32,795 nucleotides of DNA from positions 1-32,795 of the forward strand of contig CAZHRF010000036.1 of NCBI GenBank assembly GCA_964534625.1. The letters are read 5' to 3'. The DNA is from an uncultured archaeon (GTDB lineage: Archaea; Asgardarchaeota; Heimdallarchaeia; Heimdallarchaeales; Heimdallarchaeaceae). Position 1 is the first letter of the stretch. Each line of letters starts with the position of its first letter. This document shows, piece by piece, positions 4,008 through 25,493 of this stretch. The position numbers and the translations under genes are program-made. The notes under the pieces are model-generated. The model did no database searches, was not told the origin of the DNA, and was given only the letters and a program-made list of their open reading frames with translations.

Positions 4008-4394
4008 TTAGAGAACACGCTTCTTCTCGTCTCCTTTCCGTTTAATTGTAATAGATGAAGGAATGCCTTCTATTTTTCTTTCTAATTTTTTAATACCGAG
4101 ACGAGAGACTTGTCTTCCCTCTAAATAGCCGATTTTAATCAAATATAATACATTTAAGAATATGGTCTCAGCTGTTTCATTTTTATTTTCATTTTCATAG
4201 AGTTGTTTCCAGTATTCAAAGGCATCGGGTGCCAAAAAGTATTGCATTAATTGAAATTTATCATCTACCGTAACACTTCTAGGCGCTTGTTCAGCTTCTT
4301 TTAAGTCCTCCATTCGCTTCTTTCTTTTGTCTGCCATTTCCATTAATTTTTGAGCTTTTTTCTTTCTTATTGCTTCTAATTCATCAGATGTCAT
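4008..4394 (-). CDS. PDCD5/TFAR19-family DNA-binding protein (divergent)
   Basis: N-terminal DELEAIRKKK, LAPDAFEY.., LYLIKIGYL and C-terminal ITIKRK match the PDCD5 pattern (DELEAIR / LTPEA / LIQLAQSG / IKIRRK). Confidence 0.65.
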   Translation of the reverse strand: MTSDELEAIRKKKAQKLMEMADKRKKRMEDLKEAEQAPRSVTVDDKFQLMQYFLAPDAFEYWKQLYENENKNETAETIFLNVLYLIKIGYLEGRQVSRLGIKKLERKIEGIPSSITIKRKGDEKKRVL

Positions 4395-4677: not shown

Positions 4678-4911
4678 GTGAAGATATCAATTGTAACTGC
4701 TATCGGTGGAGGACTAATAGAACTAGATGCTGATCCTCATTCAACTGTAGCTCAATTAAAACGCGAAGTAGCAAGAATCAAGAAAATTCCAGCTAACACG
4801 GTCATTTTAGTTTTTCAAGGACATCAATTAGACGACAGTCAAATCCTTAAAGAAGCAGGCATTATGGATGGAGACAAACTCTATATTATTGCTAGAACGA
4901 AGGGAGGATAA
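4678..4911 (+). CDS. Ubiquitin-like modifier (77 aa, mature C-terminal Gly-Gly)
   Basis: Beta-grasp ubiquitin pattern TVAQLKREV..IPAN..ILVFQGHQLDDSQILKEAGIMDGDKLYII..GG-stop; GTG start preceded by GGTGAT RBS; next to E1. Confidence 0.93.
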   Translation: MKISIVTAIGGGLIELDADPHSTVAQLKREVARIKKIPANTVILVFQGHQLDDSQILKEAGIMDGDKLYIIARTKGG

Positions 4912-4951
4912 AGTATTTATTATTTCTCCTTAACTATTTTTAGAGTGAAAA

Positions 4952-5968
4952 ATGTCTGATGATAAATCTCATGATAAATATTCTAGACAAGAATTAATAC
5001 CAGGTTGGGATCAATCTGCTTTAATAAATGCAAATGTAATTATTGCTGGAGTTGGGGCAATAGGGAGTTATGTAGCTACCATACTGGCTTCTTCTGGTAT
5101 TGGAAAACTTATCCTCATTGATATGGATAAGATTGAACTATCCAATCTGAACAGACAACTTTTATTTCGAGAATCAGATCTTAAGAGTTTTAAAGCGGAA
5201 ATTGCAGCAAAAAGATTGAAAAATTTAAATCAAGATGTTGAAATAATTCATTATAATAAAAAAATGGAAAAAGTTCCTCTTAGAGTTTATGAAGAAGCTG
5301 ATGTGATAATTGGATGTCTAGACACATTCATTGGAAGGAGATGGATTAATTCAATGGCTGTTAGACTAAAAAAACCACTCATTTTAGGTGGTATGTTCTC
5401 CTTTTTAGGTGATGTTCAAGTTATTTTTCCTTATGACACCCCTTGTTTTGAATGCCAACCTTTGGTTCCAGATGAAGAATTAGCTCAAGCTTGTACTCCC
5501 TTTGGTGATGTGAGAAAAGATGAACGTGAAGAAGAGGAGGAAGAAGCCAAATTACCGGCAGTAGCTACCCTATCGTCCATTATTGGGGGATGGATGGCAC
5601 AAGAAACAATAAAAATACTTTTGGAAATTGGAAATCCAATCAATAATTATTTGTTTTATGATGGCTTAAATAATGCCTATACAATTGTCCCCCTAGCAAG
5701 AAACAAAAATTGTCCAGCGTGTGGTGAATTATACAATCTTGAACAAATAAAATTTATCACATCCAATAATGAAACTACAAGAGATTTACTAGTACGTTTA
5801 AGCTTGTCTTATGGTCTAGAAAAACCCGAGATTATGATAGATGGAATGATATTAGAACAAGAAAAAAAGATCTCGTCATATAATCTTTCTAATGAGAAAC
5901 TTGCCTTTGTATTAGATACTTCTTTAGCAAAACCAATCAAAGTAGTGTTAGAAATAGTAGACCAATGA
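4952..5968 (+). CDS. Ubiquitin-activating enzyme E1 (ThiF/MoeB adenylation domain plus C-terminal ubiquitin-fold E2-binding-like domain)
   Basis: YSRQ, GVGAIG, DMDKIELSNLNRQ, Zn pairs CFEC/CPAC, candidate catalytic Cys in AQACT; about 80-aa C-terminal extension resembling the Uba3 UFD. Confidence 0.92.
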   Translation: MSDDKSHDKYSRQELIPGWDQSALINANVIIAGVGAIGSYVATILASSGIGKLILIDMDKIELSNLNRQLLFRESDLKSFKAEIAAKRLKNLNQDVEIIHYNKKMEKVPLRVYEEADVIIGCLDTFIGRRWINSMAVRLKKPLILGGMFSFLGDVQVIFPYDTPCFECQPLVPDEELAQACTPFGDVRKDEREEEEEEAKLPAVATLSSIIGGWMAQETIKILLEIGNPINNYLFYDGLNNAYTIVPLARNKNCPACGELYNLEQIKFITSNNETTRDLLVRLSLSYGLEKPEIMIDGMILEQEKKISSYNLSNEKLAFVLDTSLAKPIKVVLEIVDQ

Positions 5969-6042
5969 CATATTAAAAAACATAATTAAATGCAATTATT
6001 TTTAAACAGCGATGGTACTATAATCATATAGAAGATAAATGG

Positions 6043-7470
6043 GTGATTACAATTTCTCATGATTACATTCTTGCTACTGAGATGCAACTAATTTATAATA
6101 ATGCGGGAGGATTTGAACCCGTACAAGGCAATTTAAAACGTTGGAAAGGTCAGGTAGGTACAATACAGGGTACATCTATTCCCATTTATGCTGAAATTAA
6201 AATTCAACCAAATTTTCCTCATAGCCCACCGGTTGTTAATATTCAACCCAAGTTAACACATCCTAATGTTAATGAATATGATGTTCTTAAGATGAGGGTG
6301 CTATCTAATTGGAATCCTAGAACACACATATACGAGGTTATTAATGAGATTAAGGCTTTATTTTCTACAGTACCCGCTAAACCTCTAAAATTCAAGCTAA
6401 AAGATAGTCCGTATAAAGAACCATCAAAATTACCTAGAACAGAACAGTCTAAGGATATTCCGCAAAAATTTAAATCTAGAAGCCAAGAGGTACTATTTGA
6501 ACAAGAAGTCAAAACTGATCCGCAAGTGACGAGAATCAGAAAAAAAATCCAAGCATACCAAACAAGGATAGAACAAATAAATAAAGAAATTGAAAGAGAG
6601 AGAGCAACTTTACTTGAAAATGCAGGTGTGCAAGTGAACAAAGATCAAGAGATAGAAGCATCACTCAATGATTTATATCAAGCAGACGTGAATGCCACTA
6701 GCGATCTCATCGAGATCTTAGGGGAAAAATTTGAAGATGGTGACCTTTCTGATGTTGATTATCTTAAATTGCATAGAAAGTATACTGCAAGAGTCTTCAA
6801 AACAAAAAAACAACTACAATTTATGGAAAATGCTGGTGATAAAATGGATAATAGAGATGAAAGAAGATTAGATCTAGAAGCAGACCTTTTTGCAGCAATT
6901 GTAACTTTAGAAAAGATAACTAAAGGATACCAACAACACGAGATTGAACAAATTGCTTATAAAAAACAACTTAGAGCACTAATCAAAAACATATTCAAAT
7001 CGAGAATGAGACTAGAACAAATAGGCGGCTTCAAACTAGACGAGTTTATTGAAAGAGAACAAATGGATCAGAAATATTCATTAGGAGTTAGACAGTTACG
7101 CGTAGCAGAAGGAGTTGAAACACCAGATTCTATTTCCAATGTAGCTTTACCATTTGATTCCTTGAAAAGAATGCCAAGACAAACAGCAGACTTTGTTTCA
7201 TCAGCAATTGAATTAATAGACTTAACGAGATTAAAATCCGTTGCTAGGGCAGATTTAATATTAGCAGATCTAGATGAGTTGATACATATTACAGAGACGT
7301 TTCCAAGTATTCCGGATGACTTCTGGATAATCGATGACATGAAGGATTGGAGAAAAATAGTTTCAAATTATGATACACAAGAAGTATTGAAGGGAGAGGA
7401 TTGTGAGAAACTAGAATTTCAAACCTCTAGATGGCTAAATGAATTCAGAAGATTACTTAAGGATCTTTAA
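6043..7470 (+). CDS. Fused ESCRT-I protein: UEV (E2-like, no Cys) + linker + coiled coil + Vps23/37 steadiness box + Vps28
   Basis: UBC fold FPHSPP..HPNV..LSNWNP..IYEVINEI; coiled coil RIRKKIQAYQTRIEQINKEIERER; SB-like ATSDLIEILGEKFEDGDLSDVDYLK (cf. TSG101 AIEDTIFYLGEALRRGVIDLDVFLK); Vps28-like EADLFAAIVTLEKITKGY and C-terminal four-helix bundle. Exact start uncertain. Confidence 0.88.
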   Translation: MITISHDYILATEMQLIYNNAGGFEPVQGNLKRWKGQVGTIQGTSIPIYAEIKIQPNFPHSPPVVNIQPKLTHPNVNEYDVLKMRVLSNWNPRTHIYEVINEIKALFSTVPAKPLKFKLKDSPYKEPSKLPRTEQSKDIPQKFKSRSQEVLFEQEVKTDPQVTRIRKKIQAYQTRIEQINKEIERERATLLENAGVQVNKDQEIEASLNDLYQADVNATSDLIEILGEKFEDGDLSDVDYLKLHRKYTARVFKTKKQLQFMENAGDKMDNRDERRLDLEADLFAAIVTLEKITKGYQQHEIEQIAYKKQLRALIKNIFKSRMRLEQIGGFKLDEFIEREQMDQKYSLGVRQLRVAEGVETPDSISNVALPFDSLKRMPRQTADFVSSAIELIDLTRLKSVARADLILADLDELIHITETFPSIPDDFWIIDDMKDWRKIVSNYDTQEVLKGEDCEKLEFQTSRWLNEFRRLLKDL

Positions 7471-7478
7471 TAGATGTT

Positions 7479-7519
7479 TGGTGATATACATAAATGGTTA
7501 TCACCACCACATATTTTTT
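7479..7519 (+). terminator. Putative hairpin plus T-tract after the ESCRT-I gene
   Basis: TGGTGATA (7479-7486) / TATCACCA (7499-7506) inverted repeat followed by ATATTTTTT. Confidence 0.45.
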
Positions 7520-7553
7520 AATGAAAAATCACCACTAATTGGGAGAATGTATT

Positions 7554-7859
7554 ATGGCACACAATGTTTCATCAGAAGCAATCTATCAAGAGATAAGAGA
7601 AGCTATCCTTGAATTGATCAATCTGATTGAAATTGATATTGATGTATCATACGTATTAGAAGAATTGGAAGAAATAAGATTCAAAATCAGAAAGATTAAT
7701 GTAAAAAACGGATCCGTACCAGAAGAAATAAATCAGGTGTTTAATAAGCTATATGACAAATACAAAAATAAAATGTCAGCTCCACTCTCATCAAGAGATA
7801 AAAGAAAACTTATCGAAAATCTAAAAGAATGGCTAATAAAAGCGGGTTCAATGTTCTAA
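7554..7859 (+). CDS. Small helical protein, probable stand-alone Vps28 C-terminal-domain paralog
   Basis: GGAG RBS before ATG 7554 (ORF track starts 7539); by-eye alignment to the C-terminus of the upstream ESCRT-I protein (AILELINL/SAIELIDL; VLEELEEI/ILADLDEL; LSSRDKRKL..LKEWL/LKGEDCEKL..TSRWL). Confidence 0.6.
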   Translation: MAHNVSSEAIYQEIREAILELINLIEIDIDVSYVLEELEEIRFKIRKINVKNGSVPEEINQVFNKLYDKYKNKMSAPLSSRDKRKLIENLKEWLIKAGSMF

Positions 7860-7959
7860 TAAAGGCAGCTCGTTTAAAAACAATTGTTTTTATAATGCTT
7901 TTGACAATGTACTTACAGATAAAAAGTGCATAAATCTAAAATATAATGGGGTCATAACA

Positions 7960-8682
7960 TTGGGATTAAGAGAAATAGAAAAAAAATTAAAAATCAAATC
8001 AGCTTTTCAGGTGAAAGAAGCAGAATTAATGATTAAAGAATTAGAGCAAATGATAGAAAACACTAAAGAAACGAAAAAACAACTGCAAAAATTTGAAAAG
8101 AAATATAGCGATAAAATAAAACAGAACAAAGATTATTATGAAAAATTAGAGGGGCTCAGAGAAGAGTTAGGATTACCAAAAGAGATTGGGAGATACGATT
8201 GGAGAGACGCTCCATCTATGAAAGACAAATTAACTGGTGGCGGATACTATGATAGATTGGCTAATGAAATTATTGATTTGGGTAAAGAGTTAACGAAACA
8301 AAATGGAGGGATTATGGCGATAAGTGAACTGTTCACACAAGTTAATAAAGCAAGACCAGGAAACGTAGTTTCAATTGATGACCTGTATAAAGGGTTAGAG
8401 AAGTTAATAAATGCCTCGTTAATCGCACCTTTCAAAATATTGGAATCAGGAGTAAAAATTGTTGAATTCACACCGGTTGAATTCTCTCAAGATCATAGTC
8501 TTGTTTTAAGTTATGCATCCAAAACGGGATATATAACAAGAGAAGAATTACTTATGCAAACAAATTGGACAGAGGAAAGAATTAATCGTTGCCTTGTTTT
8601 CTTTGAAGAAAATAATATAGCGATTAAAGACGACGATTATGAAGAAGGAACAAAGTATTGGTTCCCGGGACTGGGACAATAA
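7960..8682 (+). CDS. vps22: ESCRT-II Vps22/Vps36-like (EAP30 domain) protein
   Basis: N-terminal basic helix, LQKFEKKYSDKIKQN, GYYDRLANEIID..TKQNGGIMAISEL, SIDDL..L, P.EFSQDH..VL, NWTEERI..L, YWFP as in Snf8/EAP30. Confidence 0.9.
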   Translation: MGLREIEKKLKIKSAFQVKEAELMIKELEQMIENTKETKKQLQKFEKKYSDKIKQNKDYYEKLEGLREELGLPKEIGRYDWRDAPSMKDKLTGGGYYDRLANEIIDLGKELTKQNGGIMAISELFTQVNKARPGNVVSIDDLYKGLEKLINASLIAPFKILESGVKIVEFTPVEFSQDHSLVLSYASKTGYITREELLMQTNWTEERINRCLVFFEENNIAIKDDDYEEGTKYWFPGLGQ

Positions 8683-8720
8683 CTTTCTTATCGTTTTTTT
8701 CGCATAGAAAAATAAAAAGA

Positions 8721-9518
8721 TTAGAAGACTTTTTCATCATCAAAACGCATGATAGTCTTTTCCCTATTCAACCAGTGAGCTACCCCTTTATTCACTAAAA
8801 TATCGACAACATCAATCAAATCCTCAGGAGGTAAAGTTGCCCATTCTTCATCAAATTGTGATAAATCAAAAAGTGAGTGGACTTCCACTACTCGACCAGT
8901 TTCCAACATGAAATTAAGCAAATCTTCAGCAAATTCAGCGTTTGTTTTCCACTTGATTCGGGCTCTAAGTTTAGTTGTTTCTTCCTTTTTTAGCCCAAAA
9001 ATCTTAGCTAACCACGCAAAAAACCCTCGTTTTTGTTCTTCATCCAACCAGGTTGCGTAGTCTTTCTCACCTAAGTAACCAACTAAGTTCCTCAGCTGTT
9101 CAATGGATAACTCTTTTCCTATTTCTTCATTCTTAAATGGGTAAACAGTACGTATTTTATTGATACTAATAATATGAATCACATATAATTTAGTATAATC
9201 AAGAAGAACCTTTGACCATTTATCAGACCATGAACCTATTTTATCTGTACTTTTGGGGGAAATATACATCCACGGTTTGTTCACCCATTTAGGTAACATG
9301 TCCTCGAACTCTTTTTCTAATTTAACTTGTTGATCCTTCTTAGTTAAAAGTCCAGTTTGAGACCTATCTATAGCTTTAGTAGTTTGTAATTCTTCTTCCG
9401 ATATTTCAATTCCTTTCAAACTGGCCTCAATTAATTTAAGTTTCTCCTCTGAAATCTTTTTTTCTTTCTTCAATTCTTCAAGATTCACATCTATTGATTC
9501 TTTTTCTAACGTTGCCAT
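8721..9518 (-). CDS. vps25: ESCRT-II Vps25-like protein with N-terminal coiled-coil extension
   Basis: PWMYISP (PPxY-like), WSDKWSKVLLDY, YPFKNEEIGKELS, RIKWKTNAEFAE, VHSLFDL, LVNKGVA tandem winged helices; GAGGT RBS. Confidence 0.85.
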   Translation of the reverse strand: MATLEKESIDVNLEELKKEKKISEEKLKLIEASLKGIEISEEELQTTKAIDRSQTGLLTKKDQQVKLEKEFEDMLPKWVNKPWMYISPKSTDKIGSWSDKWSKVLLDYTKLYVIHIISINKIRTVYPFKNEEIGKELSIEQLRNLVGYLGEKDYATWLDEEQKRGFFAWLAKIFGLKKEETTKLRARIKWKTNAEFAEDLLNFMLETGRVVEVHSLFDLSQFDEEWATLPPEDLIDVVDILVNKGVAHWLNREKTIMRFDDEKVF

Positions 9519-9534
9519 CCAATTACCTCATATA

Positions 9535-10677
9535 TTATGCTGAACCAAATTCGGCAGCCCAATCTAGATATTTATTAACTTCTCGCTCATTAACGGAAGG
9601 ATTAATATCCTGTATTGCTCCAATAAAATCACTCATGTTTACATCACGGGCTTGTACAGTTTCATCACCTAATGCACCAATACTGTCCAAATCACGGATT
9701 GGTTTCATAATAGCCTCTCTACATATCATAGCTATATCGGCACCAGAGTAGCCTTCAGTAATCTCTGCGAGCTTACCATAATCAACATCAGATTCCATGT
9801 TAACTTCACGGGTATTATACTTGAAAATACCTTCTCTAGCCTCCAGATCAGGTAAACCAATATAAATACGTCTTTCAAATCGTCTTCTAAATGCAGCATC
9901 AATACCTTCGGGAAAGTTAGTGGCGCCAAGAACAACTATACGGTCTTCGTCTTTACTACTTAAACCATCCATTGAAGTTAATAATTCGTTTTTTACACGT
10001 CGTAAAGCATCATGTTCGCTACCCCTAGAACCCGTCATAGCATCAACTTCATCAACAAATACAATGGAAGGTTGTCTTTCTCTTGCTATCTCGAAAAGCG
10101 TTTTTACTAACTTTTCTGATTCACCCAACCATTTTGACATCAAGGAAGATGCTGAAACATTGAAAAATGAGGCTTCTATCTCAGAGGCTGTTGCACGGGC
10201 TAGTAAAGTTTTACCACAACCAGGCGGACCAAATAATAGAATCCCTTTCCAAGGTCTGCGTGCTCCCCTAAACAAATCGGGTCGCATCAATGGAAGTACT
10301 ATGGCTTCACGTAAGGTTTGTTTTGCAACACTTAAGCCAGCAATGTCATTCATTTTAACATTTGGTTTTTCTGTTACAATAAGGTCATCAATTGCACTTG
10401 CTAATTTATCGTTATCAGAATCCGTTGCTCGTGCTTTGTTCCTTGAACGCTCTTTGATTTTTTCTCTCAATTCTTTTGCACGATCAACGTACATTTCAGC
10501 TTTTTTACGAAGCTGCTTTGCTACCTGGATATTACGTTCAAAACGGATAGCTTGTGTTAAGGCTTCAGCTGCTTCTAGATAATAAGCTACAGCCTCACTA
10601 TATTGTTGATCTTTATCTAAATTGTATGCTTTTTTAGCTTTCTTTGTTGCTTGCTCTATTATACCTCTAGCAGACAC
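9535..10677 (-). CDS. vps4: Vps4 AAA+ ATPase (MIT + AAA)
   Basis: MIT domain (A..YLEAAE.L..AIRFE..YVDRAKEL), Walker A GPPGCGKT, pore loop SKWLGESEK, Walker B VFVDE, RRRFERRIYI, C-terminal EFG. GAGGTG RBS favours GTG at 10677 over 10683. Confidence 0.95.
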   Translation of the reverse strand: MSARGIIEQATKKAKKAYNLDKDQQYSEAVAYYLEAAEALTQAIRFERNIQVAKQLRKKAEMYVDRAKELREKIKERSRNKARATDSDNDKLASAIDDLIVTEKPNVKMNDIAGLSVAKQTLREAIVLPLMRPDLFRGARRPWKGILLFGPPGCGKTLLARATASEIEASFFNVSASSLMSKWLGESEKLVKTLFEIARERQPSIVFVDEVDAMTGSRGSEHDALRRVKNELLTSMDGLSSKDEDRIVVLGATNFPEGIDAAFRRRFERRIYIGLPDLEAREGIFKYNTREVNMESDVDYGKLAEITEGYSGADIAMICREAIMKPIRDLDSIGALGDETVQARDVNMSDFIGAIQDINPSVNEREVNKYLDWAAEFGSA

Positions 10678-10902
10678 GTACACACCTCATCTTTATCTTG
10701 AAAGTTACAAGGGATGATTATAGTTGAAACGATATTAACAAGACGATTTCGTCTATTGTATTAAATAGTTTCCCAATAAAGGTTAAACGTTCTTATTAAT
10801 AAAGTATAGCATATTATCTAACGTAAGGAGTAAACAACCTAACAACATATGTCAGAATAAGAGAAAATAAAAAGAAAAAGAGAGTTATATGTTTAATAGT
10901 AA

Positions 10903-11568
10903 CTAATCATCCGATATTTCTTCTTTCAAAGCTTCTAATTCCGCCTCTAGATCCGATGTATCTTCAACTTGAGAACTTCTTGATTTACCTGTTGAAACAG
11001 AGGGTAATTCATCATCTATATCTATAGATGGAAGATCCCCAGTTGTTTCCATATCCAACTCTGCTTGAAGTTGATCTAATTCATCGTCAATAGATATATC
11101 AAAATCATCTTCGAAAGCACCCTCTGAGAAACTCGTATCACCTAAGATCTCTTGGGACATAGATAATCTATCTTGTTGCATAGCTGCTTTATCCATAACT
11201 TCTGCAACACGTTTTTCATCAATTTTTCCCATTTGTTGCTCTACAACGTTTGTCCCCGTCTCCATCGCCTTAACCGTTTCTGAGGTTGATTTAGCAGTAT
11301 CTATGCTCTCCATTTGTGTTTGGAGATTCATTATCATATTTTGAGCTTGATTGATTTTTTTTAGATAAATTCTTCTTCTTTGCATTGCAGAGCGTGCGCC
11401 ATTTTTATTTCCACTTTTAAGCATCTTTGCAGCGAGTACTTTTTGCTCATCAGAAAGTCGCTCATAATTACGAATATTACGTTCAAGCTTATTTATTTGA
11501 GCTTTTAACACGGAAAGGGCTTGAGCGTCATCTCGCCTTTTGTCACCAAATAACCATTTTTTGACCAT
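10903..11568 (-). CDS. ESCRT-III subunit, Vps20/32/60 (Snf7) class
   Basis: MVKKWLFG N-terminus, GNKNGARSAMQRRRIY, NLQTQMESID, VAEVMD, DDELDQL, MIM2-like LPSV, acidic C-terminal helix; GGTGAT RBS. Confidence 0.9.
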   Translation of the reverse strand: MVKKWLFGDKRRDDAQALSVLKAQINKLERNIRNYERLSDEQKVLAAKMLKSGNKNGARSAMQRRRIYLKKINQAQNMIMNLQTQMESIDTAKSTSETVKAMETGTNVVEQQMGKIDEKRVAEVMDKAAMQQDRLSMSQEILGDTSFSEGAFEDDFDISIDDELDQLQAELDMETTGDLPSIDIDDELPSVSTGKSRSSQVEDTSDLEAELEALKEEISDD

Positions 11569-11582
11569 AATATATCACCATC

Positions 11583-12194
11583 TTACTCTTCTTTATCACG
11601 AAGTTTTTGTATTTCAGCTTCTAAATCATCAACTTCTGCACCTACTGTGGGTAATGTGGTACCTGTTGTTATACCCATCTCAACTGCAGTTTGTTCAATT
11701 AACCTATCGACTTCTGACTCATCAGTATCACTCACAAGCATATCATCAATACCATCCTCTATTGTTTCCGTACTTGTTTCTATATTGTCGATAGACATTT
11801 CCATGTCTTGAATAACGCGATCCAAATCAGGTATTTGCAGTTGTGCATTAGCCATTCTTAGGGCGTCAGCAACACCGTGCATTTCTTCAGCCATTGAAGC
11901 GGCTGAATCAGCACGCTCTAACTTGAATATGAGACCATTAATTCTAGAAACCAATTTTTGATATCCTAGTGACCACTTGCGGCTGCGAACGATATCTGTA
12001 CTATATAACCTTGCGGCTTCCATATCACCTCGTTCAATAGCTTTACGCATTTTTTGTTCCATCTTTCTTTCATCAGAATCGATTTTACGTTGTGCGCGTT
12101 CAAGTCGTCGGATAGTAAGCTTAAGATTCACAATATGTTCTCTAGGTGAACTACTACCTGACCCAAATAACCAGCCAAAGAATGAACTAAACAT
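11583..12194 (-). CDS. ESCRT-III subunit, Vps2/24/46 class
   Basis: LKLTIRRLER..DERKMEQKMRKAIERGDMEAARLYSTDIVRSRK; C-terminal MIM1-like DDLEAEIQKLR; amphipathic MFSSFFGWLFG. Confidence 0.92.
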   Translation of the reverse strand: MFSSFFGWLFGSGSSSPREHIVNLKLTIRRLERAQRKIDSDERKMEQKMRKAIERGDMEAARLYSTDIVRSRKWSLGYQKLVSRINGLIFKLERADSAASMAEEMHGVADALRMANAQLQIPDLDRVIQDMEMSIDNIETSTETIEDGIDDMLVSDTDESEVDRLIEQTAVEMGITTGTTLPTVGAEVDDLEAEIQKLRDKEE

Positions 12195-12514: not shown

Positions 12515-12883
12515 ATGACAGAAGACAAACCAATTATTCATCCACCATTATCTATGAAGACAAAGAGCTTGAAAGAATTAGCAAAAGTTATCCTATCTGG
12601 AGCCAATCCGCAGAGAGGAGCAGGATATCTAAATTATATCGTGCTTGAGAATAAAACTATATATTTCACAATGCATATGGGAATGGGGTACTATAATCTT
12701 CGTTCTTTGCCAATAATTCTTTGGACTGAGGAAGAAAAACCTCCAACAGGTGGATTTTTGAGATATAGAACATCACCAAAAGAAGAATTGGTGTTTGCCA
12801 CAGATGGTTCTGATCCAAAGTGGGCAACTCTACCCTTAGTAGAATATGAAGAAATTCCAGAAGAATTCAAAGTGTTCGAGTAA
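12515..12883 (+). CDS. Conserved hypothetical archaeal protein (resembles a small TACK/crenarchaeal conserved family)
   Basis: AGAGGT RBS; KSLKELAK, GYYNLRSLPII and LPLVEY pattern recalled from uncharacterised crenarchaeal proteins. Confidence 0.55.
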   Translation: MTEDKPIIHPPLSMKTKSLKELAKVILSGANPQRGAGYLNYIVLENKTIYFTMHMGMGYYNLRSLPIILWTEEEKPPTGGFLRYRTSPKEELVFATDGSDPKWATLPLVEYEEIPEEFKVFE

Positions 12884-13103: not shown

Positions 13104-14402
13104 TTAATCTCTTATAGCCTTTTTTCCATCACGTAAAAATTGTGTGAAATTAATTCTTGAAGGACATACATAAGAACACAATCCACATTCAATACAGACC
13201 TCAACATGGAGTTTTCTTAACATATTTACATCATCTTTTTTTGCTGCATCCATTATCAGTTGAGGATAGATATCTACTGGACATACGATATTACAATATG
13301 AACAACGTATACATGGCAAGGAATTCTCATAGGGGTCATGTTCTTCTGCTTGAAAAGCTGTTACTGCAGAAGTAGCTTTTAGAACAGGATATGAGGCATC
13401 ATCTATAGTTGGTCCCATCATAATTGAACCTAAAACTATTCTATTAAATTTTGTCGGAGATAATTTTAGATAATCAAGGATATGATTAACGGGTGTTCCC
13501 ATGCGTACCCACAAATTCTTCCCTTTTGTCTCTTTAGAATAGAAGGTAATACCCCGTGAGACTAGTGTTTCACCATTATATACTGCATCCCAAACTGCAT
13601 AAGCTGTTGCAATGTTATGTACGATTATTCCAATATCAGGCGCATATTGACCTGCTGGAACTTCAATGCCTAAAATTTCTTTTATTAAGAGTTTTTCACT
13701 TCCAACAGAATAATTGGGACGAATACGTTCAATAAGTATATCGTTGTCTCTCAAAAGTGCTTCAAACTCTGGTGTTGTACCTTCCTTTGTTCGTGTAGCA
13801 AAAATAATTTGATCCACGTCAAGCATTTTACCCATCAGTTTTATACCTTTTATTAGTTCCTTAGATTTTTCAACCATCAAACGGAAGTCACAAGCAATAT
13901 TTGGATCGCTTTCTTTGGCATTTATAATCAAGCAAGAAATAGCTTTTGATCCAAGTTTTACATGACTAGGGAATGAAGCACCACCAAGCCCAACTATTCC
14001 CGCTTCCTTAACGCGCTCAATTAATTGCGCTCTTGTTGCATTTTTGGGATCTAGAGGGTCTAAAGCACGCTTTTTTTCTTCATTTTCTGTTTTTATCACT
14101 ATTGCAATTTCATCATTTCCAGAAATAGGATTTTTTATTTCTTTTTTTTCGACTATTTTACCATTAACAGGACTATGAACTGGAGTACAAAGTGCATTTT
14201 CATCATCAATATCACCAATTTTTTGACCATACTTTACACGATCTCCAACTTTTACTAATGGTTCAGCTTTTTTTCCGATATGCTGACTTAAGAACACAAT
14301 CATGTGTTCAGCAGGAGGTACTTCCGTAAATGGGTCATCGACGGCCGTTTTTTTCATATCGATGTTCATCTCAAAACGACCTTTTTCCTTGAAATGTTGC
14401 AT
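13104..14402 (-). CDS. rnfC: RnfC/RsxC-like electron-transfer subunit (FMN/NADH domain plus two [4Fe-4S])
   Basis: SQHIG..VKVGDRV..GQKIG, PVHSPVNG, AGIVGLGGASFPSHVKL, GSEKLLI, MMG, CIRCSYCNIVCP and CIECGLCSYVCP; GGAGGTG RBS favours ATG 14402. Confidence 0.88.
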   Translation of the reverse strand: MQHFKEKGRFEMNIDMKKTAVDDPFTEVPPAEHMIVFLSQHIGKKAEPLVKVGDRVKYGQKIGDIDDENALCTPVHSPVNGKIVEKKEIKNPISGNDEIAIVIKTENEEKKRALDPLDPKNATRAQLIERVKEAGIVGLGGASFPSHVKLGSKAISCLIINAKESDPNIACDFRLMVEKSKELIKGIKLMGKMLDVDQIIFATRTKEGTTPEFEALLRDNDILIERIRPNYSVGSEKLLIKEILGIEVPAGQYAPDIGIIVHNIATAYAVWDAVYNGETLVSRGITFYSKETKGKNLWVRMGTPVNHILDYLKLSPTKFNRIVLGSIMMGPTIDDASYPVLKATSAVTAFQAEEHDPYENSLPCIRCSYCNIVCPVDIYPQLIMDAAKKDDVNMLRKLHVEVCIECGLCSYVCPSRINFTQFLRDGKKAIRD

Positions 14403-14403
14403 A

Positions 14404-15441
14404 CTAAGCACCTCCTTTTGATATTACATGTCCGTAAGGTCTTTTCATAATAATTTTATCCAGATATGGGGTTAGTGCATTTAACGCCACAAGTGCAATA
14501 ATTGATCCTCCAAGTACATTTAGAAGTTGTAAAAAGAAAGTCAAAATTGCAAGGGATATACCGAATATATATTGTGATAGTTCAGGCATAGGTGTCGATT
14601 GGGGTTCAGTAGCCATAAAAAAGACCATGAAGATAACACTGCCAGTAAAGACATGAAATGCAATTCTTAAAATGATATCTCCTTGGAATAAACCCATAAT
14701 AAGAGCTAAACCAGTCATTGTCAATAGAGAACTTACTATGATTCTCCATTTGTACCTTAACCAATATGCTGCGATTGATCCTACAATAAGTACTAAGATA
14801 CCACAAGCTCCACCTATCCACCCGTGAGTTTGCCAAAAGAAAAGACTCTGGGCAGCGGACAAATCTTGTCCAAATAGACTTTCACGTTGGAATATCCACA
14901 TTGAAGCATTAAATCCTTCTGAAGTCCATAGGTTTAGATCTAAATGATGGGGATGAAATATCATACCAAGTTTTAGAGGCTCATCCAAAAAGAATAGTAT
15001 CGATAAGACAACCAGAGCTAACACTTTGGCAGCTGCAGCAGGATTCAGATATTTTCTTTCAAAATACTTACCTTGTCCATATTTGAACAAGAGAATAGTT
15101 AATAAGGCAACACCAGCTGTAGTGTAAAAAGGGGAAGCGATTGGCATACATAAACCAACTATCATTCCTGCCACAAGAGGGGACATTGGGGTTTCATAGG
15201 TGGGAGAAATGTTTTTCATTTTCTGGTATGAATAGATTAGACTATGAACAATCAATACCGTTCCTAAAGCGATGATTATATGAACAAATGCATCGACACC
15301 CATAATTATAATTGAAACTACTGCAATTATGGACAACATTAAAAATGTCTTCAGCATTAATTCATCTTTGGTAAATCCAATATGAATATGAGGGGGATTT
15401 ACATCTTTATAATTTACTGTTTTAGATTCTTCTGGGTTCAT
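14404..15441 (-). CDS. rnfD: RnfD/RsxD (NqrB family)-like membrane protein
   Basis: PPHIH, LNPAAAA, FFMATEPQSTP, NALTPYLD; many TM segments; adjacent to rnfC. Confidence 0.85.
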   Translation of the reverse strand: MNPEESKTVNYKDVNPPHIHIGFTKDELMLKTFLMLSIIAVVSIIIMGVDAFVHIIIALGTVLIVHSLIYSYQKMKNISPTYETPMSPLVAGMIVGLCMPIASPFYTTAGVALLTILLFKYGQGKYFERKYLNPAAAAKVLALVVLSILFFLDEPLKLGMIFHPHHLDLNLWTSEGFNASMWIFQRESLFGQDLSAAQSLFFWQTHGWIGGACGILVLIVGSIAAYWLRYKWRIIVSSLLTMTGLALIMGLFQGDIILRIAFHVFTGSVIFMVFFMATEPQSTPMPELSQYIFGISLAILTFFLQLLNVLGGSIIALVALNALTPYLDKIIMKRPYGHVISKGGA

Positions 15442-17967: not shown

Positions 17968-19107
17968 ATGATTGAAAAAAAACCTACTCCAACTATGTTC
18001 ATTCTTCATGCTTATCAACCAGTTACACAAGAAAAAAAGGTATTCCAACGTATAATTGAAAATTGTTATGTACCTTTCTTTAAAAGGTTAAGAGAAAATA
18101 AAAACGCAAAAATTGTTTTAAATATTACTGGTTGTTTAATTGAACGACTAGTCAAAGAGAATGCGAAGGTTATTGAATTAATACAAGCCAATATTCAAAG
18201 TGGACAAATTGACTTGATGGGGTCAGCTTTTTATCATCCTATTTTACCCTTCCTATCCCCCAAAGAAATCCAATATCAGATACAAAAACAGACAAATATA
18301 ATACGTAAAGAATTCAATTATGACCCTCAAATATTCTTTCCGCCTGAATTAGCAATTAGCCCGGACATTATTGAATCAATAATAGATGAAGGATTCAAAG
18401 CAATTATTGGTCCAACCAATAGTCACCAATTTACATTCAGAGGCTTATATGAAACATTAGAAAAAAACATCATTATTTTAAATAGGGAAAAAAATATCAG
18501 CAATGGTATTTCTTTTAACGGATACAAGGGTCAAATTGAATCTGTTATTTATGATATTAGAAGTTCTTTTGAGCAACACCAATACCCAGTCATCATAGCC
18601 ATGGACTTGGAAACATATGGAGAACACATCCCCAATTATTATCAATTTTTTTATAGATTAGCTTCAAAACTTTTAACCATCACACACAAAGAATTATTAG
18701 AGCAATTTTCAGTTAAAAAAACCATCAACAATTTGATCCCTTCTTCTTGGTCGACTTCAGTAGATGATTTGAAGCAGGGGATATACTTTCCCTTGTGGGA
18801 TCATCCAGATAATAGCATACATCAATTACAACACTTACATACTTCACTCTTAGATTATTGTATTGAACACGTTTCTGTTGATGAGAGCACATATGACAAG
18901 TATCAAGCATCAAAATATTCATGTCAATATTGGTGGGCGTCAGGACATTGGTGGAGTAAAAAACTAATTAGGTTAGGTTTAGACTACCAAAAAGATGTTT
19001 TAAGCTTGATTTCCCCTCACTTGCCCTCAAATACAAAGCAAGCAGTTATAAAGCAATCTGAAAATATTATTAGACGTATTGACAGAATATTAGATATTAA
19101 GAAGTGA
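17968..19107 (+). CDS. Glycoside hydrolase family 57 (alpha-amylase/amylopullulanase-like)
   Basis: HAYQP, NITGCL, YHPILP, FFPPELA (nucleophile Glu), DLETYGEH (acid/base Asp), SCQYWW; GAGGT RBS. Confidence 0.9.
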   Translation: MIEKKPTPTMFILHAYQPVTQEKKVFQRIIENCYVPFFKRLRENKNAKIVLNITGCLIERLVKENAKVIELIQANIQSGQIDLMGSAFYHPILPFLSPKEIQYQIQKQTNIIRKEFNYDPQIFFPPELAISPDIIESIIDEGFKAIIGPTNSHQFTFRGLYETLEKNIIILNREKNISNGISFNGYKGQIESVIYDIRSSFEQHQYPVIIAMDLETYGEHIPNYYQFFYRLASKLLTITHKELLEQFSVKKTINNLIPSSWSTSVDDLKQGIYFPLWDHPDNSIHQLQHLHTSLLDYCIEHVSVDESTYDKYQASKYSCQYWWASGHWWSKKLIRLGLDYQKDVLSLISPHLPSNTKQAVIKQSENIIRRIDRILDIKK

Positions 19108-19113
19108 GAGATT

Positions 19114-20574
19114 ATGAAGGTTGTATTTTGTTCTGCTGAGGTCTTCCCGTTTTCAAAAACTGGGGGATTAGCAGATGTATCCAATTCTATCCCAAAAGAA
19201 ATAAGCAAGTTAGGACATGATGTAGTTATTATTACTCCATTATACAAATTTATTAACCTAGAAGATTACTCCATTGAGTTAAAAAATGAACACTTGTATA
19301 CATTTATCGGAGACTTCAGAGAAACATTTGCTTTATATGAATCTATTTTACCTGATAGTGATGTAAGAGTTTACTTTGTTAGACATCCATATTTATACAG
19401 AGACGGAATTTACACAGATAATGATGATGAAGAGTATCCCGACAATGCAATGAGATTTTTATTTTTTAGCAAAGTTATATTTGCTGTTTTAGAGTATCTC
19501 TCTTTTTCACCAGATATAATCCACGTTAATGATTGGCATACTGGTCTTGTTCCCTTTTTTCATAAAACGGAGTTTATAAAAAAGTATTATTTTAAAGACA
19601 CAAAAACAGTTTTCACTATTCATAACATAGGGTATCAAGGGAGTTATGCTTTTGATAAAATCAGTCGTGCTGATATTCCGGACAAATATTTTACTGAAGA
19701 CTTTATTGTTCATTATGATTTAGCCAATTTTATGAAGACAGGCATAGTCTTTGCAGATATAGTTACAACAGTTAGTCAACAATATAGTATAGAGATAGGC
19801 ACTAAAGAATATGGACATGGATTGGAAGGTTCAATTCAAAAACGTAAGAACGATTTATATGGCATTGTACATGGTATTGATTACTCACAATGGGATCCTA
19901 AAACAGATCCATATATTGAAACTAATTATGATCATACAGAATTAAAAGGCAAAAAGGAATGTAAGAGGGCGTTACAACAAGAATTGGGCCTTGAACAAAC
20001 AGATAAGCCACTATTAGGCATTGTTTCTCGTCTCGCTTATCAGAAAGGTCTAGATTTGGTACTCGAAAAATTTGATGAAATACTTGGATTAGGTGTCCAA
20101 CTAGTCTTATTAGGGACAGGAGATAAGCAACTTGAAAAACAATTTAAAGAAAAACAAAAAGAATATCCACATAACTGTTCTATAAACATCACTTTCAACA
20201 ACGAACTAGCTCACAAAATTGAAGCAGGAGTAGATCTATTTTTAATGCCCTCACGTTATGAACCATGTGGATTAAACCAAATGTATTCAATGATTTATGG
20301 TACTATCCCTATTGTCAGAAAGACTGGTGGTTTGGCGGATACAGTTCAAGAGTACAATTTGAAAAAGCAAACAGGAAATGGTTTTATATTTGAAAATTAT
20401 GATCCCGATGAATTTTTGGATGCAATTAAACGAGCTGTCCAGCTTTATAAAAACAGACCTAAGTTGTGGAAATCTCTTGTCAAAAAAGTAATGCAAATTG
20501 ATTTTGCATGGAAAAAAGTTGCAAAAGAATGGGAGAGAATATACAAAAAAGTTCATTCTTTGTGTAATATGTAA
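19114..20574 (+). CDS. glgA: Glycogen/starch synthase (GT5)
   Basis: KTGGLADV, HVNDWHTG, TIHNIGYQG, VSRLAYQKG, PSRYEPCGLNQM, TGGLADTV. Confidence 0.95.
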   Translation: MKVVFCSAEVFPFSKTGGLADVSNSIPKEISKLGHDVVIITPLYKFINLEDYSIELKNEHLYTFIGDFRETFALYESILPDSDVRVYFVRHPYLYRDGIYTDNDDEEYPDNAMRFLFFSKVIFAVLEYLSFSPDIIHVNDWHTGLVPFFHKTEFIKKYYFKDTKTVFTIHNIGYQGSYAFDKISRADIPDKYFTEDFIVHYDLANFMKTGIVFADIVTTVSQQYSIEIGTKEYGHGLEGSIQKRKNDLYGIVHGIDYSQWDPKTDPYIETNYDHTELKGKKECKRALQQELGLEQTDKPLLGIVSRLAYQKGLDLVLEKFDEILGLGVQLVLLGTGDKQLEKQFKEKQKEYPHNCSINITFNNELAHKIEAGVDLFLMPSRYEPCGLNQMYSMIYGTIPIVRKTGGLADTVQEYNLKKQTGNGFIFENYDPDEFLDAIKRAVQLYKNRPKLWKSLVKKVMQIDFAWKKVAKEWERIYKKVHSLCNM

Positions 20575-20597
20575 AGTTCATTCTTTGTGTAATATGT
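20548..20597. repeat. Perfect 25-bp tandem duplication at the convergent glgA/GH13 junction
   Basis: AAAGTTCATTCTTTGTGTAATATGT at 20548-20572 and 20573-20597. Confidence 0.95.
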
Positions 20598-23500
20598 TTT
20601 TTACTTTATATTCCGAATCTTCTGCTTTCCTCTTCAAATTTTTCATGGATTCTTGTAAAGCAAATATCGGTTTTTGATCTTCTTCTCCTCTAATGATTTT
20701 GTTTTTATATTCAAGAAGTGATAACAGATATAACCATTCTATAAATGTCTCATATTTTTCTTTATTGAACCATAAGACACCTTTAAAATCGTTTACTTCA
20801 AGATAAGATGTCCCTTTGACATCATTAAACAAGGTATCAAATAGAGTTTTATAGTCCGCTCTCTCTACTGGCATTTTTCTAGTAACTATAAGCAAAGGGA
20901 GTAAATTCAATATCGTCTCAGGATTAAATTCTGTTTTTTCTTTGACAATTTGTTCAATTACGTGTTTTAAGAATAACTCATCCATCATTCCCAAAGTAAT
21001 TGTATTTACATTTTTTGTATCAATAAGCTTCCCTATATCCTTTAACAATAAATTCAGTATTATTATAAGATAGAGTCCTTCTTTCTTGTTTTCCGACAGA
21101 AGATGACCCACATATTCTTCACATAAAATCTTACTTTCCTTTGCTTGTTCTAAATTGTTTTTTAGATAAATTAAATTCAGTAATTGGTTCTTGAAGTGAG
21201 TGAGCATTTCTTCTACTATTTCTTGATTTTTTGTCTCTACTTTTCTAATCACTTCTTCAATAAACACCTTATAACTTGTAAGTGCTGTATCTATTTTTCC
21301 TTCTTTAATACCTTTTGTGCACCTTTCTACACTTTGTTTAAATGCACTATGAACGTGCTTGAAATTAATTAATCTTATTTCATTACGTATACTTTTTGTT
21401 CCTCTCCCCTTTAGCTCTTTGTATACTTCTGCGTATAACTCATTTCTTGTATCTTTTATCTCATAAAAATTAACGAATACATGATATTGATACGCATTTA
21501 GCTCAATATACAAGCCCTTACTGTGTATTTCTTTACTCTTTCTGATATATTTCAATCCACTTATACTATCTTTAAAACAACAAAAATATCCTCTTTTATT
21601 GGTTAAATTGAGAACGTTAGCTAAAGTTGTTGTTTTCTTTATCTTTTCTTCAGCTGTCTTCACCACATATGCTTCTGAATCTTTTATCCAACCTCTGGCT
21701 TCTGCATATTTATTGTGATATAAAACCAATGACTGCTCATTTTCTATGCCATTTGAATATGCAAATATATTTTCTTGTACGTTTCCAGTTCCGTCTTTTA
21801 CATTATATAACCGGAAATTTTTACTTTCAGCAAATAAATACCTTTTTCTAAGCAATGGGACAATTATATTTTCATGTTTATTTACCAGTTCAATATCTTC
21901 TCTTTCATCCCAATACGCCTGTCTATATTCCATCCCATATTTTTCTGAGAAACCTTGAAACTGTCCATGTCCAAACATTGGAAGGCCAGGTAAAGTTGCC
22001 AATAAAACACAAACCCCGAAGTATTTATCTCCTTTCCCAAATTGTATAACAGCCGGTTCTTCATCTGGATTATTCATAAAATTAACAAAACGCTTCAAAA
22101 TTTCTGGATCAAACTCTAATGTGTTTTTTATTGTCTCTCGATATTTTTGATTTTCCTCATTTTTCAACATGTTCATGAATGCACTATTATAGACTCTGTG
22201 CATCCCCAAACTTCTTACAAAATACCCTTCTAATAACCAAAATGCTTCAGCTAATAGAAGCGTATTTGGTGCTTCTTGAGCTATTCTATCTACAACTTCT
22301 CTCCAGAACTCTTTAGGCATTAACTTATCAAATTCTTCTTTTGATAAACCATGTTCTGCACGAGAGGGTATTCCACCCCCTTTTCCCGGTTCAGGATACC
22401 ATAACCGTTGAAAATGTTGTTTTGTTAGGACCATGGCGGCATCAAACCTAATTATAGGAAAGAGTTTTGCTACATGAATTATTTTATTTATTACTGCCTC
22501 TCTCACTCTTTCTTTTAAAAAGTCTAATTGTGCTGTGTCATTCCAAGGCATATCCGTACCGTCATTTCCATGATAAATATAATTAACAGCGCCATTCTGG
22601 AAATCTACTCTTTTAAAGACTACAGCAGCATCAGTTCTAGTATAATAGTGGTCTTCCAAGTATAGTCCCATCCTAGGATCTGAAGACAAGTTTTCTCCTT
22701 CAAAGATATATGAAGGAAAGGGACTTTCTAATACTGATATAAACCAATCTGGATGTTCAATTAACCACTTGGAATCTAAGCCAGTATGATTAGGTACCAT
22801 ATCACCAGATAACCTTATTCCACGTTTTTTTGTTTGATCCTTTAAATATACGTAAGATTCATATCCACCTAGATCTGTGGCTATTTGATAATCATATAAT
22901 GAATACGCAGAAGCTTCTGCTTCCGGATTGCCCATTTTTCGTTTAATTTTTTTAGATATTTTGCTTCTTTCCCAAAGTCCAATTAACCATAAGGCATTAA
23001 ATCCCCATTTGGCCAATTGATCTAGTTCCTCGTCTGGTATTTCATCCAATCGGGATATTGGACGCTTATATTTTTTCGATAATTGATTCAACCAGACATA
23101 AGTATTCTTTGCTACAAGAACTACTTTGGGCATCCAATTTTCATCCGGGCTATATCTCTCTTGTCCTTCTATTCCTTCATAATACAAAATGTGAGCTTCA
23201 CCCGGCCCTCCTCCTCTAAAAACTTGTTCTTCCTCGATTACACCTATACTTGTAAGTATTCTACTTATCATATGTTCTGGCAGGAAATCCCAATTTTTCT
23301 GTATATAATCCAATTGATCTTTCAGATCAGAGGAATGTACAATAGGTTTAAATATAAAATCAACAAGAGTTTCATTTTTGAAAGATTTTGTTTGCAATTC
23401 TTCCTTTATACGATGGGTAAAATCTTTATATTCGGTTATTTTTTTTATGTCTTCATCCGAAATTAAATAACGAGAACCTTCTATTGCCAAATTACTATTG

Positions 23501-23955
23501 TGAATATCTAGTAGCGCTATTTCTGTTAGTGTTTTTATTAATTCAGTTTCATCAGCAAGAATTTCTTCAACGTGTTCATCAATAGTTTTTTTTTCTAATA
23601 AAACATCGAAAATAGGAAAATTAAAGGCATGTACTTTTATTACCTCTCGTAACTCTTCTTTTGTATAAACAGAATCTAATTTGTTAATTATCCCCTCAAA
23701 TGGATTGTTCCCCACTTCTTTTTCGTATGTATGTATCACTTCCCTAAATGCTTGATCTATAAGAGAGACACCGTTCAATTCTCCAGCCCTCACCATCTTT
23801 TGTTGATCTTGACTTTTTTCCTTATCCAGTCTCTCATTAATTATTTTTGCAAATATTCTTGCTTGGTAGATAGTAGACAAATCTAACCCTTTACCTTTAG
23901 ACAAAAAAGATTCATTTATTCCCTCAATTTGGTAAAACTCTCTTCGAATGTACAT
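20578..23955 (-). CDS. Large GH13 alpha-amylase-family protein
   Basis: DMVPNHTG (region I), IRFDAAM (nucleophile Asp), LLAEAFW (acid/base Glu), FMNNPDE (region IV), LPGLPMF. Confidence 0.88.
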   Translation of the reverse strand: MYIRREFYQIEGINESFLSKGKGLDLSTIYQARIFAKIINERLDKEKSQDQQKMVRAGELNGVSLIDQAFREVIHTYEKEVGNNPFEGIINKLDSVYTKEELREVIKVHAFNFPIFDVLLEKKTIDEHVEEILADETELIKTLTEIALLDIHNSNLAIEGSRYLISDEDIKKITEYKDFTHRIKEELQTKSFKNETLVDFIFKPIVHSSDLKDQLDYIQKNWDFLPEHMISRILTSIGVIEEEQVFRGGGPGEAHILYYEGIEGQERYSPDENWMPKVVLVAKNTYVWLNQLSKKYKRPISRLDEIPDEELDQLAKWGFNALWLIGLWERSKISKKIKRKMGNPEAEASAYSLYDYQIATDLGGYESYVYLKDQTKKRGIRLSGDMVPNHTGLDSKWLIEHPDWFISVLESPFPSYIFEGENLSSDPRMGLYLEDHYYTRTDAAVVFKRVDFQNGAVNYIYHGNDGTDMPWNDTAQLDFLKERVREAVINKIIHVAKLFPIIRFDAAMVLTKQHFQRLWYPEPGKGGGIPSRAEHGLSKEEFDKLMPKEFWREVVDRIAQEAPNTLLLAEAFWLLEGYFVRSLGMHRVYNSAFMNMLKNEENQKYRETIKNTLEFDPEILKRFVNFMNNPDEEPAVIQFGKGDKYFGVCVLLATLPGLPMFGHGQFQGFSEKYGMEYRQAYWDEREDIELVNKHENIIVPLLRKRYLFAESKNFRLYNVKDGTGNVQENIFAYSNGIENEQSLVLYHNKYAEARGWIKDSEAYVVKTAEEKIKKTTTLANVLNLTNKRGYFCCFKDSISGLKYIRKSKEIHSKGLYIELNAYQYHVFVNFYEIKDTRNELYAEVYKELKGRGTKSIRNEIRLINFKHVHSAFKQSVERCTKGIKEGKIDTALTSYKVFIEEVIRKVETKNQEIVEEMLTHFKNQLLNLIYLKNNLEQAKESKILCEEYVGHLLSENKKEGLYLIIILNLLLKDIGKLIDTKNVNTITLGMMDELFLKHVIEQIVKEKTEFNPETILNLLPLLIVTRKMPVERADYKTLFDTLFNDVKGTSYLEVNDFKGVLWFNKEKYETFIEWLYLLSLLEYKNKIIRGEEDQKPIFALQESMKNLKRKAEDSEYKVKNILHKE

Positions 23956-23967
23956 TTACCTTTCCAC

Positions 23968-25368: not shown

Positions 25369-25493
25369 TACAACTCAACAATGTCTATGCACCTTTTTAA
25401 AGGTTGGTAACAAGAATCTATCTCCCAACTGCTTACTTTCTTATATTAAATGAGGTGAAGATTTATTAAATATAATATCAGTAGATTATCTGA

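Follow-up and report, generated by a model that had tools for sequence, protein, structure and literature searches.

Known Ub-ESCRT clusters of Asgard archaea

Ubiquitin-ESCRT (Ub-ESCRT) gene clusters have been described in several Asgard lineages, and that of AB_125, an experimentally studied member of the same group as our source organism, carries a fusion of UEV, Vps23 and Vps28 (Hatano et al. 2022, PMC9192718). The AB_125 tags HeimAB125_14010-14070 comprise ESCRT-IIIA, ESCRT-IIIB, Vps4, Vps25, Vps22, an unlisted gene (14060) and the fusion, and its ubiquitin has a non-consecutive tag (14240). The AB_125 UEV binds ubiquitin through Val45 (PMC9192718), and studies of AB_125 and other Asgard proteins showed that Vps22 dimerises, that Vps25 binds ESCRT-IIIB, and that two-hybrid links extend along the pathway (PMC9192718). 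The two-arm arrangement, the fused ESCRT-I and the stand-alone Vps28 C-terminal domain (Vps28-C) have all been published (Hatano 2022, PMC9192718; Makarova 2024, PMC10936438), the last as a separate gene found besides full vps28 in some Asgard genomes (Makarova et al. 2024, PMC10936438). In Heimdallarchaeia the fusion co-locates with ubiquitin, and the clusters of other lineages include RING genes (bioRxiv 10.1101/2023.07.25.550441); Hel, Odin and Hermod cluster types are described in the same work (bioRxiv 10.1101/2023.07.25.550441).

The DNA analysed here, termed the window, is an entire contig (C36) of 32,795 nt from a genome assembly of 3.37 Mb in 120 contigs, 89.8% complete, whose source organism belongs to Heimdallarchaeaceae and to a different genus from AB_125. 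Its Ub-ESCRT locus is an already published Heimdall-type Asgard cluster, real and correctly annotated, and since the enzymes that seem to be missing from it are encoded elsewhere in the same genome, it is also an ordinary one. The gene order from ESCRT-IIIA to the fusion is that of AB_125, with the fused ESCRT-I of the window as the counterpart of HeimAB125_14070 (PMC9192718). The window locus is a member of the AB_125-type Heimdallarchaeaceae Ub-ESCRT cluster and, by analogy, would work like it, the biochemistry being that of AB_125.

The closest named loci are those of Ca. Heimdallarchaeum aukensis and endolithica (CP084166, CP084167), of the same family as the source genome, which have the same gene set with 42-74% identity. 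Like the window, they contain no E2, E3 or JAB in the cluster, and encode a C1-type E2 and a C16-type JAMM (named here after the contigs of our genome) far from it; unlike the window, their ubiquitins end in GG-L or GG-F, and a C72-type system was not found in them. The Baldrarchaeia cluster, composed of E1-E2-Ub-RING plus Vps23, Vps28, Vps28-C and Vps22, shares with the window an orthologous E1, an orthologous ubiquitin with a stop codon directly after GG, a stand-alone Vps28-C and a neighbouring PDCD5-like gene, but it has an E2 and a small RING inside the cluster, and its Vps23 and Vps28 are separate genes. The window is thus distinct from the single-operon Odin/Hel/Baldr type, which is defined by an E2 and a RING inside the cluster.

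Gene content of the cluster

All nine cluster genes of the first-pass annotation were confirmed in position and strand by their ORF coordinates, with Pfam matches for eight of them and fold and profile comparisons for a 100-aa ORF. On the + strand, a eukaryote-like, 77-aa ubiquitin that stops directly after its di-Gly (4678..4911; Pfam ubiquitin, E 4.7e-13), and that keeps Val45 of the UEV-binding patch by sequence check, adjoins a 338-aa E1 ubiquitin-activating enzyme (4952..5968; Pfam ThiF, E 1.4e-60). The E1 contains two CxxC pairs, at 165/168 and 254/257, and Cys181 is its candidate catalytic residue. Next is the fused ESCRT-I (6043..7470), composed of UEV, Vps23 stalk/steadiness box and Vps28 (Pfam UQ_con 2.3e-10, UEV, Vps23_core and VPS28 5.7e-12), whose sole Cys is residue 454 and whose UEV has no Cys at the E2 catalytic site. 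The fusion is full-length in relatives of the family, and Vps23 and Vps28 are split in most genomes of neighbouring families. The + strand genes end with the 100-aa ORF, a stand-alone Vps28-CTD paralogue (7557..7859), and the ESCRT-II gene vps22 (7960..8682; Pfam EAP30, E 3e-22).

The opposite strand contains vps25, the other ESCRT-II gene (8721..9518; Pfam ESCRT-II, E 2.8e-13; PDB 7pb9, E 1e-9), and vps4, for an AAA ATPase (9535..10683; Pfam MIT, AAA and Vps4_C) whose MIT domain is present and whose Walker A/B and Arg finger motifs are intact. These are accompanied on the - strand by two ESCRT-III genes, one of the ESCRT-IIIB or Vps20/32/60 class (10903..11568; Pfam Snf7, E 7e-21), which matches the AB_125 ESCRT-IIIB structure (PDB 9ftl, E 2e-60), and one of the ESCRT-IIIA or Vps2/24/46, CHMP1-like class (11583..12194; Pfam Snf7, E 1e-21, and Ist1; CHMP1B, E 2e-19). 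The ends of vps22 and vps25 do lie tail-to-tail 38 nt apart, as first reported, and the A/T-rich gap between these convergent genes (8683..8720) is a possible shared terminator of both.

The locus resembles the eukaryotic pathway in its UEV ubiquitin reader, Vps28-CTD, winged-helix ESCRT-II, two ESCRT-III classes and MIT-bearing Vps4, and differs from it in that Vps36, Mvb12 and ESCRT-0 are not found in the locus, Vps23 and Vps28 are fused, and an extra free Vps28-CTD is present.

The reported lack of E2, E3 and JAB genes holds for the window, as distinct from the genome: a Pfam scan of the 21 other larger ORFs of the window gave no E2, RING or JAB match, and in genome-wide searches for these families only the Cys-less UEV matched in C36. 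The remaining window genes outside the cluster are metabolic or unannotated.

A free Vps28 C-terminal domain

The 100-aa ORF had no ESCRT match in Pfam, VPS28 included, and single-sequence, Pfam, PDB-sequence and Atlas searches gave it no identity. The NCBI name of one homologue, 'YtzH-like', was discarded, as the underlying Pfam match was present in only 2 of 21 members. Its AlphaFold model (pLDDT 88.8) is a four-helix bundle, a generic fold for which structure searches give generic scores, and the yeast Vps28-CTD ranked first both in Foldseek (TM 0.73, E 0.07) and in the VIA wide search (Z 12.6, rmsd 2.2, 93 residues aligned). HHalign comparison of the ORF profile with Asgard Vps28-CTDs gave 86.8% (E 4.3e-6, 84 columns), and an Asgard Vps28-CTD HMM matched the Baldrarchaeia homologues of the ORF at 5e-9 to 3e-6. 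The fold ranks and the profile match support the initial call of a Vps28-CTD-like protein. The position of the ORF is conserved in six Asgard families: it immediately follows vps28, with vps22 almost always next in line. ESCRT-II, the partner expected of a Vps28-CTD, is a candidate; a complex prediction of the ORF with a Vps22 dimer gave a score of 0.16 and a mark of 0.32, which speak neither for nor against it.

Layout and flanking genes among relatives

The layout of the window, from ubiquitin through the second ESCRT-III gene, was found in 13 of 22 family loci, and most of the others are interrupted by contig ends. None of the 22 loci contains an E2, RING or JAB inside the cluster, and a layout that lacks them is the norm for Heimdallarchaeaceae. 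In 18 of 20 relatives vps22 and vps25 are also tail-to-tail, at 0-29 nt. Exceptions to the layout were a genome with ubiquitin and the ESCRT-III pair inverted, another contig with E1 inverted, and Heimdallarchaeum, in which the PDCD5-like gene, ubiquitin and E1 lie on the opposite strand, in the interval separating vps22 from vps25. Novelty of the layout cannot be claimed, as the same order occurs in relatives and in published work (PMC9192718; PMC10936438).

Two flanking genes are conserved in the family. A PDCD5-like paralogue (4008..4394, - strand), inverted in the window with respect to relatives, scored 0.90 to dsDNA_bind clusters in the Atlas and had PDCD5 as a weak top row in Foldseek; the canonical PDCD5 is encoded separately, on C34. 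A general partnership of this gene with ESCRT was not supported, since it adjoined ESCRT genes in 0 of 20 sampled loci outside the linked families. The second flank is a 122-aa unknown protein (12515..12883, + strand) of a widespread Asgard family, located away from ESCRT genes in the two outside genomes for which positions could be compared.

Conjugation enzymes encoded elsewhere in the genome

Genome-wide searches detected four UBC-fold proteins: two Cys-bearing E2s (C1:198220-198690 and C72:6183-6704), a stand-alone UEV on C5, and the fusion of the window. AB_125 likewise encodes four proteins of the E2 fold, a Cys-bearing pair and a pair of UEVs, whose active-site segments match those of C1, C72, C5 and C36, and its E2 tags (07740, 09840) are far from its ESCRT cluster. 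Three JAB/JAMM proteins with an intact H-x-H-x7-S-x2-D motif were found, on C16, C72 and C94, as well as ten RING matches on other contigs, seven of them above the Pfam cut-off and five with membrane-like segments. The linkage of these contigs to C36 is based on binning and is backed by the presence of orthologues in all 24 relatives. The first-pass annotation had offered two explanations for the missing genes; a streamlined variant is contradicted by two Cys E2s, three JAMMs and ten RING matches, and the other, that the enzymes lie elsewhere, is borne out by them.

An E2 is encoded away from the cluster in all 24 relatives tested. The E1 and ubiquitin of a Baldrarchaeia E1-E2-Ub-RING operon have their best matches in those of the window (45% for the E1). 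The operon E2 in turn best matches the C1 E2 (53.6%, E 6e-63), as compared with 34% for the C72 E2. Neither a Ubl nor an E1 adjoins the C1 E2, which all 24 relatives retain, and each of the two closed Heimdallarchaeum genomes contains one catalytic E2, 77% identical to that of C1, ~162-165 kb from the cluster. By orthology, the C1 E2 is likely the cognate E2 of the window's ubiquitin; this and the JAMM assignments below rest on orthology and co-occurrence among related, hence non-independent, genomes. For the small operonic Baldrarchaeia RING, no one-to-one orthologue could be singled out among the RINGs of the genome.

The C72 locus, common in the family, comprises its E2, a JAB and a membrane RING, together with a separate E1 and a Ubl whose last residues are AG. 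The most plausible interpretation is a second system, with E1 and Ubl of its own, because no E2, E1 or JAB of the C72 type was found in the two closed Heimdallarchaeum genomes. The C94-type JAMM, likewise present in those genomes, adjoins a UFC1-like gene and probably acts on a different modifier. Among 30 family genomes, 27 encode a C16-type JAMM, which has a conserved hydrophobic C-terminal tail, and the closed Heimdallarchaeum genomes, with their extended pro-ubiquitins (GG-L or GG-F), keep it. Since archaeal Rpn11-like JAMMs process pro-ubiquitin (PMC6043591), this tail-anchored protein is the strongest candidate for maturase and deubiquitinase.

The GG end of the ubiquitin

In all 20 relatives whose loci were fetched, the ubiquitin carries a tail of 1-2 residues after GG, so that a protease is needed to expose it. 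The ubiquitin of the window natively ends in GG, whereas genomes whose ubiquitin is identical to the published AB_125 1-77 construct add one Leu. An assembly error was ruled out, given that a protein identical to the window's ubiquitin is encoded on seven contigs, among them ones from independent Logan and ENA assemblies, and that a 99%-identical variant likewise ends in GG. The GG end is not unique either: the family-like ubiquitins P0044, P0047 and P0049 share it, as do those of Baldrarchaeia, which adjoin E2 and RING genes. In the window's ubiquitin the GG end reflects local loss of a single-residue extension, not a redesign; the trait is labile and uninformative on loss of conjugation or deubiquitination. 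The earlier remark that this ubiquitin needs no maturation does follow from its end, but the end is no sign of a reduced system, and the genome still carries the C16 JAMM.

Alternative readings

A system independent of E2 and E3, in which E1 alone conjugates ubiquitin in a SAMP/Urm1-like manner or loads the neighbouring UEV, with the distant E2s, RINGs and JAMMs dedicated to other modifiers, would agree with the family-wide lack of these genes in the cluster, with the GG end, and with the C72 enzyme set having an E1 and Ubl of its own. However, all 24 relatives retain the C1 E2, which stands apart from any Ubl or E1 gene and corresponds to the E2 located between this E1 and ubiquitin in Baldrarchaeia, the UEV has no Cys, and in twenty relatives GG must be exposed by a protease; such a system is thus very improbable. 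Supply of the enzymes by the C72 cluster is somewhat less so, since the locus carries intact, neighbouring genes for all three kinds of enzyme and is common in the family, but it too is unlikely, given the E1 and AG-ended Ubl of C72 and the failure to find its E2, E1 and JAB types in the two closed Heimdallarchaeum genomes, which keep the Ub-ESCRT cluster. Cross-talk may occur in genomes that have both systems.

The two convergent arms had also been read as separately regulated sorting and scission units. The convergent geometry requires at least two transcripts, the narrow tail-to-tail gap is maintained in most relatives, and in Asgard archaea vps25, vps4 and ESCRT-III typically share one direction, as do vps23/28 and vps22 (PMC10936438), a pattern that has been read as assembly order (PMC10936438). 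Yet ESCRT-II is divided between the arms, both complete Heimdallarchaeum genomes have Ub and E1 on the same strand as Vps25, Vps4 and ESCRT-III, other relatives show inversions of single genes, and elsewhere in the order there are families in which Vps22 at times points the same way as Vps4/Vps25, which leaves separate regulation possible but doubtful. A sigma-70 promoter scan, a method ill-suited to archaea, gave 30 sites against 36.4 expected.

Proposed pathway and significance

The locus is, with high confidence, a standard Heimdallarchaeaceae Ub-ESCRT cluster served by conjugation enzymes encoded in trans, a reading that rests on sequence and synteny. From its motifs, the clustered E1 would adenylate the GG-ended ubiquitin, take it onto Cys181 and, as orthology suggests, pass it to the C1 E2, with one or more of the ~ten RING proteins, several of them membrane-embedded, as candidates for targeting substrates. 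As in the AB_125 counterparts, the UEV of the fused ESCRT-I would bind ubiquitin via the Val45 patch (PMC9192718). On the basis of Asgard two-hybrid and biochemical data (PMC9192718) and of eukaryotic knowledge, ESCRT-I would contact the Vps22 dimer and Vps25 would recruit ESCRT-IIIB; the two ESCRT-IIIs would then polymerise on the membrane and be recycled by Vps4, as judged from Asgard homologues (PMC9192718) and the eukaryotic pathway. The tail-anchored C16 JAMM probably removes ubiquitin, and in relatives would trim the extra C-terminal residue.

[quoted passage not shown] No published reconstitution of the upstream half of the Heimdall pathway was found in the Asgard Ub-ESCRT literature examined. 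The cluster bears on the origin of eukaryotic membrane traffic, a point already made with purified proteins of the same family, and this genome adds little beyond a naturally mature ubiquitin that ends in GG and a list of its putative partners, namely the C1 E2, the C16 JAMM and the membrane RINGs.

A second ubiquitin-like system, a possible further one and a JAMM protease elsewhere in the genome

A JAMM protease gene with an intact motif was found on contig C16 of the source genome (20707-21576), and its product, which has a C-terminal membrane-like helix, is a candidate tail-anchored deubiquitinase. Proteases of this type were present in 27 of the 30 Heimdallarchaeaceae genomes, and the 401-aa ORF located upstream is also a neighbour of the Heimdallarchaeum JAMM gene.

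A second ubiquitin-like system maps to contig C72 (866-6704), where genes for an E2, a JAB protease, a multi-pass membrane RING protein, a membrane ORF, a 121-aa ubiquitin-like protein with AG at its C-terminal end, and an E1 all lie on one strand. This system is common among Heimdallarchaeaceae, but no copy was detected in either of the two closed Heimdallarchaeum genomes. On contig C94 (124-3987), an E1 gene cut by the contig end is followed in a row by a JAB gene, a 165-aa ORF and a 350-aa Vps22/EAP30 paralogue. By eye the 165-aa ORF looks like a putative UFC1-like protein, and the row is possibly a UFM1-type system adjoining an ESCRT-II paralogue.

ESCRT paralogues outside the window

Contig C6 carries a third Vps22-like ORF (27160-27960; 266 aa), which matches the Vps22 profile of the family at E = 4e-9. 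Contig C5 (86306-86965) encodes a stand-alone UEV protein of the published UEV_X/HeimAB125_11700 type, which aligns with the window ESCRT-I fusion at 29% over 247 columns, extending through the steadiness box, and might contribute a third, Vps37-like hairpin to ESCRT-I.

Genes around the ubiquitin-ESCRT cluster

Further along the window are an RnfC/RnfD-like pair (13104-15441, minus strand), with no further Rnf genes within the window, and a glycogen block (17968-26624) comprising GH57, glycogen synthase, alpha-amylase-like, phosphoglucomutase and nucleotidyl transferase genes.

An unannotated 122-aa protein (12515-12883, plus strand) belongs to a family detected in 71/121 Asgard genomes, whose gene flanks ESCRT-IIIA in Heimdallarchaeaceae; in two sister-family genomes it lies ~8 kb from the C1-type E2.

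The PDCD5-like paralogue (4008-4394, minus strand) is separate from the canonical PDCD5 gene on contig C34; of 201 Asgard genomes, 69 contain a match to it. It adjoins ubiquitin-ESCRT genes in Heimdallarchaeaceae and Baldrarchaeia, and in none of 20 other loci sampled. In relatives it lies upstream of the cluster in the same direction as E1 or ubiquitin, while in the window it is inverted.

Ubiquitin, E1 or the ESCRT-III pair are inverted singly in relatives (contig C24 of G002, locus L037, and a further contig, L072), which suggests that each could be transcribed independently.
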